Assembly: GCA_964610875.1 (NCBI GenBank)
Contig: CAZSWP010000010.1
Location: forward strand, 1-64,000
Direction of reading: 5' to 3'
Source: an uncultured archaeon
Lineage (GTDB): Archaea; Asgardarchaeota; Thorarchaeia; Thorarchaeales; Thorarchaeaceae
Length of the DNA: 64,000 nt
A model generated the notes under the pieces. The model did not search any database. It saw only the letters and a list, made by a program, of their open reading frames with translations, and was not told where the DNA came from. The translations under genes were made by a program, and so were the position numbers. This document shows positions 8,307-49,588 of the stretch, one piece after another; position 1 is the first letter of the stretch; each line of letters starts with the position of its first letter.

Positions 8307-8990
8307 ATGGAAACCGAACATATCGAGAAACGAATGCTCCTGATTGGAGAAGAAGCACCTGATTTTGAAGCCGTCACGACTGATGGTCCCATCAAGTTCA
8401 GTGAATGGGCAAAAGACAGCTGGGTAATATTGTTCTCGCATCCAGCCGATTTTACTCCGGTATGCACTCGATGATTGGATTCATTCCAATATCGGCATAA
8501 AACGGAGTTCATGGCCTTTGCGGATATCTATCCAGAATTGAAAGAAAAAGGCGTCAAGCTAATTGGACTCAGTATTGACAGCATCTACTCACATATTGCT
8601 TGGCTAAGAGCAATCAAAGAGAAGCTTGGAAAAGAGATACCATTCCCAATCATCGAAGACCTCAGTATGAATGTGGCTAAGAAATATGGCATGATTCATC
8701 CAGCACAGAGTGGTACTGCAGCCGTGAGAGCAGTCTTCTTCATTGATCCTGATTTCAAACTACGTGCATTGATTTACTATCCACTTAGTAACGGACGCAA
8801 CATGCAAGAGATTGTACGTGTCATTGATGCCTTCCAGACCTCCGATAAGCATAAGGTAGCAACTCCTGCAAATTGGACTCCTGGTGATGAAGTCATCGTT
8901 CCTCCTCCAAAGACACACGCAGACGCAGAGAAGCGACTGGCAGAAGGATATGACTGCGCGGATTGGTTCTTCTGCAAGAAGAAACTCTAG
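8307..8990 (+). CDS. Peroxiredoxin (Prx6 / archaeal TPx type), interrupted by an intron: join(8307..8467,8501..8990), 216 aa
   Basis: [12 protein letters not shown]|[32 protein letters not shown]-terminal CADWFFC; RBS GAGGAG at 8291-8296. Confidence 0.92.
8468..8500 (+). other. 33-nt BHB-type intron in peroxiredoxin mRNA
   Basis: Central helix ATGC(8462-65)/GCAT(8495-98); bulges AC|T and AA|A; intron stem CGAT-G-ATTGGA/TCCAAT-ATCG; exon stem ACTCC-G-GT/ACGGAGT; contains in-frame TGA. Confidence 0.88.
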
Positions 8991-9021
8991 TAGACATTAG
9001 TTATACACCGATACAAAAACC

Positions 9022-9062
9022 GGGGGTGGGGCGTTGCTTCACCCCCAACCTTCCAATTTTTT
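9022..9062 (+). terminator. GC-rich hairpin plus T-tract downstream of peroxiredoxin
   Basis: GGGGGTGGGGC-GTT-GCTTCACCCCC, then a T-run at 9057-9062. Confidence 0.6.
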
Positions 9063-9133
9063 GCAAAGCGTTTGTGCTGTTCTCCACGCTAATAATACAG
9101 GTCGTTTATTTTGTAGAAGGAGATATACTTACA

Positions 9134-9478
9134 ATGTGGGGACTTGGAATCAATACACAATTATTCTGGAAACTAGCATCTTTTGCACTAATCTTTGGTA
9201 TTGTTTCGGGGAACTACTGGAGTGACTTGGTAGGACCTGATGATGATGCGGATGGATTTGTGTACGTACCATAAATTGTGAACGAGTCTGTAGATATTTG
9301 TGATTACCAACCTTGCACAAATCCATACAACAAAATCCCTGACTGGATCACATCAGAAACAACAAAGTATTCCACCACAACCACCAATATTGCTGTCGGT
9401 GAATTTATTCTTCTTTCAGGTATCATAATCTCCTCTATAACTGTGCTAATCATTCTGATAGTAAAAAGGAAGAACTAG
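9134..9478 (+). pseudogene. Remnant of a NosD/beta-helix-type surface protein C-terminus with TM anchor
   Basis: GNYWSD..GPDDDADGF..VP* motif; in-frame TAA at 9272-9274, then a Thr-rich linker, TM and KRK tail. Confidence 0.5.
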
Positions 9479-9611
9479 AATAATTGTTGTTGTACAAGAG
9501 TATGTATACTTATCAAAAATGATTCGTGTTCTGTCGAAATGGTCTTTTGAATGCTCAACATACTTATAGGCCGCTTCGAAAAACCTCCTTGGAGAATAAA
9601 TCCAAAGGGGA

Positions 9612-10424
9612 ATGAAAATGGTATTCAACCCGTTAGGGCCAGATCTTCAACTGATCTGGGATATAATCGCGTTCTTCATCTCATTCTTTCTTGTTCTATT
9701 AGTCGTGATGATCAACGGAGCAATTGAGAAGAGTGGAAAAGTATCAGCTGATGTGACACGCAAAATAGTGCATATCTTTGCAGCTCCAGTCTTTCTGGTA
9801 TCCTGGTTATTATACTCGGGTGGTCTGTTCAGTAGGTATTTTGCAATGATTGCACCATTGATGTTCGTGATACTCTTTGTCGCAATTGGCACAGGAAAGA
9901 TGGTAAATGAGGCATTCGTAGGCTCCATGTCAAGGTCTGGAGACCCTCGAGAGCTTCTTGGTGGTACACTCTACTACGCACTGATGCTTGTTATAATTAC
10001 AATATTATGGTTCTATGTACCAGTCACTGGACCAGCTGGAGCTACTCCTATGGCATTTCTCATCTTTGGGTGTGTTGCTGGCGGAGATGGTCTCGCTGAT
10101 GTCATTGGGAGGAAATACGGTGGGGACCGAAAGTTTGGAATTGCGGGATCTGAGAGAACAGTAGTTGGGTCTATTGCAATGTTTGTGGGCTCATTTCTGT
10201 TTAGCTATGTACTCTTCCTCATTTTCTCACTAGAGGTTTCAAGTTTTGATGCCGTAGCGATGCTTATACCAATTCTTGTGATTAGCTTGATTGCTACTAT
10301 TGTTGAGGCTCTATCTCCGAAGGGATTGGACAATTGGACCGTGCCTATTGCGGTGATTATTGTAGTGGTAGTACTAACATTTGTGTACCCTGCTTGGTGG
10401 CCATACCCACTATTGACTCTATGA
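9612..10424 (+). CDS. Phytol/dolichol kinase-like CTP-dependent prenol kinase (membrane)
   Basis: TRKIVHI, MSRSGDPRELLGGTLYY, GDGLADVIGRKYG, DNWTVP. Confidence 0.8.
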   Translation: MKMVFNPLGPDLQLIWDIIAFFISFFLVLLVVMINGAIEKSGKVSADVTRKIVHIFAAPVFLVSWLLYSGGLFSRYFAMIAPLMFVILFVAIGTGKMVNEAFVGSMSRSGDPRELLGGTLYYALMLVIITILWFYVPVTGPAGATPMAFLIFGCVAGGDGLADVIGRKYGGDRKFGIAGSERTVVGSIAMFVGSFLFSYVLFLIFSLEVSSFDAVAMLIPILVISLIATIVEALSPKGLDNWTVPIAVIIVVVVLTFVYPAWWPYPLLTL

Positions 10425-10443
10425 GTTATTCGAGGTAATATAT

Positions 10444-47478: not shown

Positions 47479-47481
47479 CTT

Positions 47482-48270
47482 TTATCCGCCTCCGAAAAAG
47501 AACTCAAAGATATTATCCAATGTCATCATAATCACAAACCCAATTATCAAACCCCATGTTGCCAGTCGCGCATTACCACCTGCATGACTCTCTGGGACCA
47601 TCTCATCTCCAACAACAAAGACCATCGCCCCAGCTGCAAACGCAAGTCCATATGGAAGGAGGAAGGTTGAGAATGCAACTACCGCAACTCCCAAGAGTCC
47701 TCCGATTGGTTCGACTAGACCAGTGGCTAAGGCAAGCCCGGCGGCATATTTTCTCGAATATCCTTCTCTCACCATTGGAGCTGCAACAGCCAAACCTTCT
47801 GGTATATTCTGCAGACCAATTGCTACGGCCACTGCCAGTCCATTTGCAATATCGTTCCCTCCAAACGCTACTCCTACAGCAAGCCCCTCAGGGAAGTTAT
47901 GTATTGTTATTGCCAAAACTAGCAACCAAACTCTCGCCATATTCGATGATGGTCCTTCTTCTCCTTTCTGAAAATGCTCGTGGGGTATGTATCGGTCTGC
48001 AAGATGAACGAATACACCTCCAAGAGCAAATCCAAGACCAACGACAGTGAGCACTTCCGTCCAGTTTGTGATCATCTCTAGAGATGGTACCAGTAGACTA
48101 AAAGCTGATGCAGCTAGCATAACCCCTGCTGCCAATCCCAACATAAAATCTAGAGTTCTTCTCTTGAATTGACCACCCAATAGTACTGGAATTGCTCCAA
48201 TACCTGTAGCAGTCCCTGCAAGTAGACTGGCAATTATCCCTAATGCCATTGAGTCTGAAATCAGCTGCAT
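47482..48270 (-). CDS. ZIP family metal transporter (ZupT/GufA)
   Basis: IPHEH, HNFPEGLAVG, QNIPEG, AAGAM, PESH. Confidence 0.92.
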   Translation of the reverse strand: MQLISDSMALGIIASLLAGTATGIGAIPVLLGGQFKRRTLDFMLGLAAGVMLAASAFSLLVPSLEMITNWTEVLTVVGLGFALGGVFVHLADRYIPHEHFQKGEEGPSSNMARVWLLVLAITIHNFPEGLAVGVAFGGNDIANGLAVAVAIGLQNIPEGLAVAAPMVREGYSRKYAAGLALATGLVEPIGGLLGVAVVAFSTFLLPYGLAFAAGAMVFVVGDEMVPESHAGGNARLATWGLIIGFVIMMTLDNIFEFFFGGG

Positions 48271-48345
48271 CCTCTTTCACCTAGTTCTACCATAATATAT
48301 GTTGCCAGTATAAGGCCGTTTTCATTTTGTTTGACATAGTAAAAA

Positions 48346-48365
48346 ATTAGAACACGTGTTCTAAT
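48346..48365. promoter_or_regulatory. Perfect 20-bp palindrome, candidate metalloregulator operator
   Basis: ATTAGAACAC|GTGTTCTAAT about 75 bp upstream of the ZIP start. Confidence 0.55.
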
Positions 48366-48521
48366 AAATCCAAAGTTTCACTCTATTTCTGTTCTACAAA
48401 CTCTCGTGAAATATTGTAGACAACTTGATGATTAAAATCGGGACATCCACGCATCAATGCGTCCTCCTCATCAAAGAAAGCAAATCGACCTCCTGATTGC
48501 ATAACCAGAATCCAAGGGTAA

Positions 48522-49409
48522 TTACAATCCTGCATCTTCTATCAAATAATCGTACACACTCTGCCAGATAGTACCATCATCACGGTACTTGTTCTCAAAG
48601 TTATTAGTGTTAATCCACTCTTGCAGTGCATTAGCTGCCTCTTGTGAAAACGTATCATCTGAAATCTGTGATATAAGTCCAAGTTTTTCCAATGATTTTT
48701 GAATTCTAGTGGCAACATCACCTTCAATCTTCATCAATCGAGATGGATCTTCTCTACTTAGTAGAGTCATGTCATATATCTTGAAGATACGTTCAAGCTC
48801 TTCAATTGGGCTTGGATGTTCATCAACACGGACATCGACATAACGGTCATTTCCTCCCTCATATCCTCCTTTCTCTCGAACAACAAGAATAGATGCAGAC
48901 TGCATGCCTCTTTTATCTCCGCCTGCTGCCTGACCTGCTTTTAGTCCAGCAAAGAGTTTGTCAATCAAATCGCCCTCTGTACTTTCATATGCTTCAGCCA
49001 TATCAACAACAACTGCTTCGCCTGCCAAGATATTTCCTTGACAAGTATAGCCTTCACCAGTTATATGACCCGCCCAATCCATACACTCCTCTCCAGTATG
49101 AACCGCAACTCGCCCATTTCCATCAACAATACCCATCTGTCTATGCTCTGCTCCTTCATCACTCATAATAAGCGTGTCCAGTGTTTCAGTTGCAGATTTT
49201 CCCTCATTAAGAAGGTCTAGTCCTCTGGGCCCGTAGGAAACATTTGCCCATGCCTGCGTTGCAATTGCCCCTACATCTGCTATTGCCCATGGCACAACTG
49301 AACCAACACAGGGAAACTTGGATTGAACAATCACTCCCAGATCTCCGCTATCCGGGTTTCTTGCAACAAGAGAAAAGGTACTTAATGAAGCAACATTTCG
49401 CTTTTTCAT
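48522..49409 (-). CDS. DUF1028 (Ntn-hydrolase-like) protein
   Basis: TFSLVA, GAIATQ, HTG..C..WAG, QGN.L, GGDKRG.QSA, RVDEH. Confidence 0.88.
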   Translation of the reverse strand: MKKRNVASLSTFSLVARNPDSGDLGVIVQSKFPCVGSVVPWAIADVGAIATQAWANVSYGPRGLDLLNEGKSATETLDTLIMSDEGAEHRQMGIVDGNGRVAVHTGEECMDWAGHITGEGYTCQGNILAGEAVVVDMAEAYESTEGDLIDKLFAGLKAGQAAGGDKRGMQSASILVVREKGGYEGGNDRYVDVRVDEHPSPIEELERIFKIYDMTLLSREDPSRLMKIEGDVATRIQKSLEKLGLISQISDDTFSQEAANALQEWINTNNFENKYRDDGTIWQSVYDYLIEDAGL

Positions 49410-49481
49410 CCTACAACACCTATCTTGTCTAAAGATGAAGCCCATCAATATGGCTATCGGTTCAAAGAAAAATGAAAAAAG

Positions 49482-49588
49482 TGGTGGGCCCGAGGGGACT
49501 TGAACCCCTGGCCGTTCCCTCATCTAAAGGAAACCTTCAGATGTACAGGTTATGAGCCTGCTGCTCTACCAAGCTGAGCTACGGGCCC
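49482..49588 (-). tRNA. tRNA with CAT anticodon (likely tRNA-Ile2; Met not excluded) with a 30-nt intron (49515-49544) at position 43/44
   Basis: GGGCCCG acceptor stem, GCAGG-CTCATAA-CCTGT arm, AGGGG-TTCAAGT-CCCCT, ACCA end; intron hairpin CATCTGAAGG/CCTTTAGATG. Confidence 0.88.

Follow-up and report, generated by a model that had tools for sequence, protein, structure and literature searches.

Introns of the kind removed by the tRNA-splicing machinery interrupt tRNA genes, and probably also a protein-coding gene, in an uncultured archaeon of the Thorarchaeia. The DNA analyzed here (hereafter, the window) is a 64,000-nucleotide stretch of GenBank assembly GCA_964610875.1 (contig CAZSWP010000010.1, positions 1 to 64,000), part of a 3.75-Mb genome bin, G000, that comprises 124 contigs and is 95% complete. 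The protein names of close homologues point to the Thorarchaeota (Asgard archaea). The window carries six bulge–helix–bulge (BHB) introns: four in a tRNA-Asn gene, one in a tRNA-Met gene, and one in the gene for a 1-Cys peroxiredoxin (Prx). We consider it likely, with good confidence, that all six are handled by the archaeal tRNA-splicing pathway.

The Prx gene, at positions 8307-8990 of the forward strand, is broken just after its catalytic cysteine by an in-frame insert of 33 nucleotides (nt) that includes a TGA stop codon at 8472-8474. Its parts are as follows (in bulges, ↓ marks the cut).

8307-8467, + strand: Prx exon 1, METEH...FTPVC plus the first two bases of a Thr codon; AhpC-TSA profile positions 1-41; the N termini of orthologues align.
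8468-8500, + strand: Prx mRNA intron, 33 nt; central helix AUGC/GCAU, perfect; 5' bulge AC↓U; 3' bulge AA↓A.
8501-8990, + strand: Prx exon 2, A plus TEFMAF...KKKL and the stop; AhpC-TSA profile positions 43-123, then 1-cysPrx_C.
8454-8508, + strand: folded BHB element of the Prx pre-mRNA, with outer helix ACUCCG/CGGAGU, central helix, two 3-nt bulges, and intron hairpin.

Homology defines the insert to the base. Pfam profile coordinates run from 1-41 directly to 43-123 across the junction. At the 19 orthologous Prx loci present in 40 related genomes, the two parts are contiguous with exactly one codon between them (19/19); here, 36 bases separate the two blast matches, that is, one codon plus 33 bases. 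In the DNA alignment, the insert is a clean 33-base insertion into the invariant FTPVCTTEF. The spliced coding sequence of 651 nt specifies 216 residues, and homologues have 215-217. The gene contains no other lesion, its nonsynonymous divergence (dN) is about 0.09 versus saturated synonymous sites, and a genome search with exon 2 returns only this locus. Apart from this genome's own fragment, none of the 120 best database homologues shows the intron, and none of the relatives searched has it. By this comparison, the Prx intron appears to be a recent, lineage-specific gain. A truncated Prx of 159 residues, P0062, was considered as a further intron case and rejected, because the end of a contig cuts that gene.

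The insert also has the fold expected of a BHB intron. The central helix pairs 8462-8465 with 8495-8498, and the bulges are 8466-8468 and 8499-8501. For the 63-nt Prx region, RNAfold gives a minimum free energy of -22.8 kcal/mol (z = -5.47), and none of 200 shuffled sequences is as stable. When the exons are held fixed and the intron is shuffled, a BHB as good or better arises in 0.14% of cases. We regard splicing of the Prx insert as a BHB intron as likely. Coding sequence contributes to the outer and central helices and makes up both sides of the outer one. Specifically, the synonymous codons GTA (Val), ACG (Thr), and GAG (Glu) complete the pairing, and most relatives use GTC, ACC or ACA, and GAA at these positions. 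The insertion site may have been predisposed to accept an intron, or it may have been tuned later.

The tRNA introns share this architecture. The window contains the following tRNA features.

44428-44626, + strand: tRNA-Asn(GTT) gene, four introns, CCA encoded; 199 nt, spliced 77 nt, ARAGORN call.
44428-44450, 44482-44487 (6 nt), 44518-44526 (9 nt), 44556-44577, and 44610-44626, + strand: tRNA-Asn exons.
44451-44481, + strand: tRNA-Asn intron 1, position 22/23 (D stem), 31 nt; AGGU/GCCG, one A-G mismatch; 8-base-pair (bp) hairpin; bulges AG↓A and AA↓A.
44488-44517, + strand: tRNA-Asn intron 2, position 28/29 (anticodon stem), 30 nt; AGCG/CGCU, perfect; 8-bp hairpin; bulges AC↓A and AA↓A.
44527-44555, + strand: tRNA-Asn intron 3, canonical position 37/38, 29 nt; CUGU/UCAG, one U-U mismatch; 9-bp hairpin; bulges UA↓U and AC↓A.
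44578-44609, + strand: tRNA-Asn intron 4, position 59/60 (T loop), 32 nt; UUCG/AGGA, one G-A mismatch; 7-bp hairpin; bulges AU↓C and AC↓C.
49588-49482, - strand: tRNA-Met(CAT) gene, one intron, CCA encoded; Rfam tRNA score 61.9 bits with a 31-column insert.
49544-49515, - strand: tRNA-Met intron, position 43/44, 30 nt; ACCU/AGGG, one A-G mismatch; 10-bp hairpin; bulges GU↓A and AA↓C.

An earlier, sequence-only reading of the window had described six single-hairpin introns of 29-33 nt whose 3' bulges all begin with A, four of them with one mismatch in the central helix. Reading the sequence and computing the pairings reproduces each of these points. Lengths are 33 nt for Prx, 31, 30, 29, and 32 nt for tRNA-Asn, and 30 nt for tRNA-Met. 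All six are built alike: the central helix forms between four bases of the upstream exon, close to the 5' cut, and the four intron bases that precede the 3' bulge; each bulge measures 3 nt; and what is left of the intron makes one hairpin of 5-10 bp. The central helix is perfect in the Prx intron and in tRNA-Asn intron 2, and has one mismatch in each of the other four (three A-G, one U-U). AA↓A occurs as the 3' bulge in three introns, and AA↓C, AC↓A, and AC↓C in one each. All six introns therefore form a BHB with at most one central-helix mismatch; in the tRNA-Met intron and tRNA-Asn intron 1, the outer helices are weak, as in the relaxed form of the motif. Cuts after the second base of each bulge yield a recognizable tRNA-Asn and tRNA-Met, and return PVCTTEF and 216 residues to Prx. 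Pattern searches are a poor guide to such elements: a loose BHB pattern is unspecific, with approximately 1,000 matches per strand per 64 kb, and a strict scanner that requires the outer helix misses the true tRNA-Met intron. Among nine manually verified introns, the first bulge base is A in eight of the 3' bulges and seven of the 5' bulges, against a genomic A content of about 0.3, in a post hoc count on a small sample; the bias is not visible in the less reliable automatic tRNA intron calls.

Within the window, tRNA-Met and an uninterrupted tRNA-Glu are recovered by ARAGORN and by Rfam, the latter at both gathering and E-value thresholds; the third tRNA, tRNA-Asn, escapes both programs, and its introns were dissected by hand. 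Following four excisions, ARAGORN calls a 77-nt tRNA-Asn(GTT); following one, tRNA-Met(CAT). Neither ARAGORN nor a blastn-short search with the mature sequence found a second tRNA-Asn gene in the assembly. With this as the only tRNA-Asn found there, the cell must be able to make all four cuts, including the three at imperfect motifs. The 6-nt micro-exon AGCGAC (44482-44487) is wholly consumed by the BHBs of introns 1 and 2; thus, an order of splicing may be imposed.

The genome encodes the enzymes that such splicing would require. Two tRNA-splicing endonuclease (EndA) paralogues match PF01974, with 102.8 and 70.8 bits.

L021:1474-2049 (contig C12), - strand: alpha subunit; PF01974 match and alignment to 3P1Z_B.
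L022:1447-2070 (contig C3), - strand: beta subunit; PF01974 match.

The alpha subunit, of 191 residues, is closest to Aeropyrum pernix alpha (3P1Z_B, E 2e-44) and keeps the Tyr/His/Lys catalytic residues; its sequence contains FSVYEHGPGKDHAPF and SVRKKF. It aligns to the A. pernix protein without a gap through the Crenarchaea-specific loop (CSL), or L1 loop (GQPVGIRKPKSPEFEKPLELS), with the loop lysine aligned. The position is that of Lys44 of A. pernix (numbering after Hirata 2011). The beta subunit, of 207 residues, retains the fold, and the position of the catalytic histidine of Methanocaldococcus jannaschii is replaced. An RtcB ligase is also present (contig C1; 588 bits, 486-residue open frame). 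The predicted architecture is thus a broad-specificity (alpha-beta)2 EndA with an L1/CSL loop. Alongside epsilon2, (alpha-beta)2 is the type of endonuclease that cuts non-canonical introns, and homology suggests that the enzyme here would act on relaxed motifs, as the sequence-only reading had proposed. We found no sequence-level difference from the (alpha-beta)2 enzymes of A. pernix (3P1Z) and Pyrobaculum aerophilum (2ZYZ), which likewise consist of two paralogues, a catalytic alpha with an ungapped L1 loop and a beta that lacks the catalytic histidine. An (alpha-beta)2 endonuclease with a conserved L1 loop has been reported for Asgard archaea (Kaneta 2018, PMC5829648).

Prx is not the only coding gene with such an insert. 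We compared this genome with G019, a relative that shares its family and not its genus, by reciprocal tblastn of all open reading frames (ORFs), a motif-free census that covered 2.75 of 3.1 Mb and approximately 1,700 comparable ORFs. It revealed exactly two clean, small, stop-bearing inserts in this genome: that in Prx and one in hutU, encoding urocanate hydratase.

Contig C13, 53723-53752: hutU intron, 30 nt; ACGG/CCGC; bulges AC↓A and AA↓A; 9-bp hairpin.

Excision of the hutU intron restores YGQ-MTAGGWMYIGPQ (YGQ-MTAGG), and none of 20,000 shuffles does as well. In about a dozen of 78 Thorarchaeia genomes, from several genera, the open frame around hutU exon 2 is approximately 470-500 residues (472 here), and in the rest it is approximately 675-705. 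These open-frame lengths suggest that the hutU interruption may be patchy across genera.

A Pfam search added the single actin gene. It is split by 30 nt with a TAA (contig C13, 33815-33786), between TFQK and MWVSRKEF, and excision restores TFQK-MWVS. The pairwise census missed this case because G019 has a 30-nt intron at the same actin site (contig C3, near 106770). Across 30 loci of the class, the site is occupied in G000, G019, and G012, which represent three genera, and empty in 27. The three actin introns are identical at 16-23 of 30 bases, with the BHB kept in all; the 150-residue actin query segment in G019 and G012 is 91-97% identical to that of G000. In a gene of this kind, a conserved insert that so preserves its structure is hard to explain unless it is spliced. 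G019 furnishes a further example in the gene for RNA polymerase A' (rpoA').

G019 contig C1, 6910-6974: rpoA' intron, 65 nt; perfect BHB CACA/UGUG; 7-bp outer helix.

Its excision restores SEDDLSHKLIDIIRIN. The length of the insert is not a multiple of three, so the gene is frameshifted unless the insert is spliced. hutU and actin here and rpoA' in the relative bear out the suggestion that more apparent pseudogenes of this lineage may be spliced mRNAs. No intron was seen in cbf5, the known archaeal host of a coding intron: the genome has one TruB_N match, where an open frame of 335 residues shows no interruption.

The genome scan that the sequence-only reading had in mind succeeded by the motif-free census and the Pfam search and failed when it started from the motif. 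Real and decoy (parallel-pairing) motifs numbered 87,909 and 86,864, and stricter filters left them equal, e.g., 216 and 188. The motif-first approach is powerless because adjacent same-strand gene boundaries mimic split genes. Limited to sites that are insert-free in G019, it leaves Prx, hutU, and one false positive, C1 10053-10087, which proved to be two adjacent genes with a conserved stop. Also rejected, other stop-bearing tblastn insertions (C33 41268, C2 134430, C32 5950, and others) were antisense or low-quality alignments. Separately, comparison with G019 shows conserved genes split here by two inserts of approximately 187 nt (contig C39, 1551-1733, and contig C12, 48664-48836). These exceed the 30-nt introns in size and form a class of intervening element apart from them.

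How did six introns of such uniform size and layout arise? One possibility is that they are copies of a single mobile intron that moved from a tRNA to new tRNA sites and into mRNA, as in the copy-and-paste route proposed for Thermoproteales, and that they owe their size and shape to common descent. The 29-33-nt range and the shared layout fit such copying, as does the rapid turnover of positions between genera. In G019, tRNA-Asn has two introns, near 43/44 and 58/59, and positions 22/23, 28/29, and 37/38 are uninterrupted; the G019 counterpart of intron 4 is an intron of unrelated sequence, approximately one base away in the same loop. The tRNA-Met intron recurs at the same site in G019 (29 nt) with a different hairpin sequence. 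From these comparisons, intron positions appear to turn over between genera, with the sequence drifting fast while the exon-pairing part stays. Gain at new sites, claimed from the window alone, fits both the absence of the Prx intron from the 19 orthologues and the three of four tRNA-Asn positions that are empty in G019.

The sequences themselves carry no trace of copying. To the six introns of the window we added those of hutU, actin, and G019 rpoA', as well as six clean tRNA introns located elsewhere in the genome, for a comparison set of 15. The tRNA introns from outside the window came from an automated census (excision, then ARAGORN) that is unreliable, e.g., tRNA-Met was re-called as Leu; only its cleanest calls were kept, and only for this similarity test. 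Among the 105 pairs, the best local alignment score is 9, reached by 1.7% of shuffled pairs, i.e., chance level. Searching the whole genome with blastn-short detected no second copy of any intron, and significant similarity across sites, by which Fujishima 2010 recognized transposed introns, is absent from the set. The headline proposal that one intron proliferated and spilled from tRNA into mRNA is thus not supported: no pair scores above what shuffling yields, and the genome contains no copy that could have served as donor. With no shared sequence among the introns, copying from tRNA to mRNA is not demonstrated; the spilling is a fair description of the pattern and unproven as a route. Any trace of copying would decay fast: between two genera, the introns that occupy one and the same site in tRNA-Met and in actin already differ at half of their positions, an observation we count against the copying explanation. 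We regard descent from one mobile intron as improbable. The shared shape and size are most simply explained by what the endonuclease accepts.

A second alternative concerns Prx alone. The five tRNA introns would be real, and the Prx insert would be a recent disabling insertion, never spliced, in a young pseudogene with nothing beyond a BHB-like hairpin. The restriction of the insert to one lineage and the frequency of the loose BHB pattern in random sequence agree with this idea. It has to contend with a BHB in exact register with a perfect central helix (shuffle probability 0.0014), an excision that restores the invariant PVCTTEF to the base, and a gene that has no other lesion and contains the genome's only Prx exon 2 match. 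Moreover, the same kind of insert lies in actin and, in G019, in rpoA', genes that are essential or highly conserved and cannot be pseudogenes. We judge the pseudogene explanation quite unlikely. Several points do weigh against splicing. The minimum free energy fold has a 5-bp central helix with the 3' bulge one base further 3', and the frame-restoring cuts, 8467↓8468 and 8500↓8501, need a near-isoenergetic 4-bp register. The Prx intron occurs in a single lineage, which affords no covariation or conservation test. Coding-gene introns are rare, with two clean cases among approximately 1,700 comparable ORFs, and the lack of power of the motif-first scan over its decoy makes the genome-wide count a lower bound with no measured rate.

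Finally, it is scarcely credible that the TGA, the only stop in the in-frame 33-nt insert, is read through by recoding (as selenocysteine, or by ribosomal bypass) or that the insert is an assembly error, since read-through would add 11 foreign residues, present in no homologue, between the peroxidatic Cys-Thr and the active-site Thr-Glu, and independent assemblies from SRR7048218 and SRR7048220 contain the intron allele base for base.

Splicing of all six introns by the tRNA pathway is thus the reading that we develop here. What is observed is how the introns are built, that the insertion is clean, that the enzyme genes are present, and that parallel cases exist. From these, we infer the cutting and ligation of the Prx mRNA. 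The notion is that the precursor folds locally and that a helix joins four bases of the upstream exon, just before the 5' cut, to four intron bases close to the 3' end. This pairing would leave a 3-nt bulge on each strand, and the remaining intron bases would fold into one hairpin. The (alpha-beta)2 endonuclease, with an L1/CSL loop that tolerates imperfect motifs, would cut after the second base of each bulge, and RtcB would join the exons. The tRNA-Asn precursor would undergo four such rounds and tRNA-Met one. In the Prx mRNA, removal of 33 bases with the TGA would produce FTPVC-T-TEF and a normal 216-residue 1-Cys peroxiredoxin. Mini-introns in coding genes of Thorarchaeia (Prx, hutU, and actin; rpoA' in the relative) would exist as a consequence of an enzyme that cuts any RNA bearing the motif.

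The broader hypothesis is that Thorarchaeia continually gain approximately 30-nt endonuclease-spliced introns, in coding genes as well as tRNAs, that these arise de novo wherever an exon can complete a BHB rather than by copying, and that some, such as that of actin, are then kept across genera. The introns of Prx, hutU, actin, and G019 rpoA', together with the patchy hutU frames, support continual gain, and we give the hypothesis as a whole even chances. If it holds, close relatives of eukaryotes offer a natural, spliceosome-free system of mRNA splicing in which the birth of introns can be observed, and many of the genes that Asgard annotations list as “pseudogenes” or as split are intact.

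Much of the setting is known. Both the load of tRNA introns in Asgard archaea and their endonuclease type have been described; the coding-gene introns reported here are unpublished. Interruptions affect 92-95% of Asgard tRNA genes (PMC11291895), with up to five introns per gene, 30% of them missed by tRNAscan-SE (bioRxiv 10.64898/2026.10.13.758758); neither study mentions mRNA. The 2026 preprint also presents a negative result on the copying of Asgard tRNA introns, with which our all-against-all result agrees. Like the multi-intron tRNAs of Thermoproteales (Sugahara 2008; Fujishima 2010) and of Asgard archaea, the genes in the window have introns at non-canonical positions (22/23, 28/29, 43/44, 59/60), several introns per gene, relaxed BHBs, repeated gains, and a tendency to be missed by standard finders. 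Relative to the Asgard tRNA literature, there is no essential difference, four introns per gene being within the published range of up to five. Published Asgard work has focused on Jordiarchaeia and Atabeyarchaeia, with a median of 22-23 nt, whereas the introns here are from Thorarchaeia and approximately 30 nt. What distinguishes them from the Thermoproteales is that they carry no sequence trace of intron copying.

For coding sequences, the searchable literature on archaeal BHB introns yields only cbf5 in Crenarchaeota (PMC2738675) and a 5' untranslated region (UTR) intron in Haloferax (PMC7714728), and cbf5 was described, as of 2020, as the sole case of an endonuclease-spliced intron in a coding sequence (PMC7714728). 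The cbf5 pre-mRNA intron (Watanabe 2002; Yoshinari 2006; Yokobori 2009, PMC2738675) is likewise a short BHB intron within a coding sequence, found in lineages with (alpha-beta)2 endonucleases, removed by the tRNA-splicing enzymes, and gained or lost between relatives. The hosts here differ: they are 1-Cys peroxiredoxin, hutU, actin, and rpoA', the phylum is Asgard (Thorarchaeia), several genes are affected per lineage, and splicing at the Prx locus is predicted. Thus, the mRNA introns described here use the cbf5 mechanism and do not belong to the cbf5 intron family. In Haloferax volcanii, the HVO_1309 transcript has a BHB intron in its 5' UTR (Schwarz 2020, PMC7714728), and there too the splicing endonuclease acts on an mRNA rather than on tRNA or rRNA; this intron differs in that it lies in an untranslated leader, leaves the reading frame intact, and belongs to a host with the alpha'2 type of enzyme.

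The eukaryotic parallel is more distant. Like the splicing that we propose for Prx, HAC1/XBP1 splicing affects a stress-related gene and alters its reading frame. In HAC1 and XBP1, the mRNA is cut by protein alone at paired stem-loops and then joined by a tRNA ligase (RtcB in animals). The differences are that its endonuclease is Ire1, not EndA/TSEN, and that its splicing is stress regulated.

Peroxiredoxin thus joins cbf5 as a coding-gene case. Taken with actin, hutU, and the RNA polymerase gene, it points to an Asgard lineage in which the tRNA machinery recurrently splices mRNA. There are practical consequences for annotation. Gene callers split or truncate such genes, the public protein for the Prx locus being a 159-residue fragment, and tRNA finders miss essential tRNAs, such as tRNA-Asn here. 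For evolution, these are recent, datable intron gains in protein genes that involve no spliceosome and show no trace of a mobile element, and they bear on how introns can invade coding sequence.

Elsewhere in the window, a 68-nt direct repeat, 74% identical between its copies (35134-35201 and 36026-36093), occupies two intergenic stretches 892 nt apart. Between the copies, at 35672-35708 on the - strand, lies a weak Rfam match of the CRISPR-DR15 type (27.6 bits, below the gathering score).

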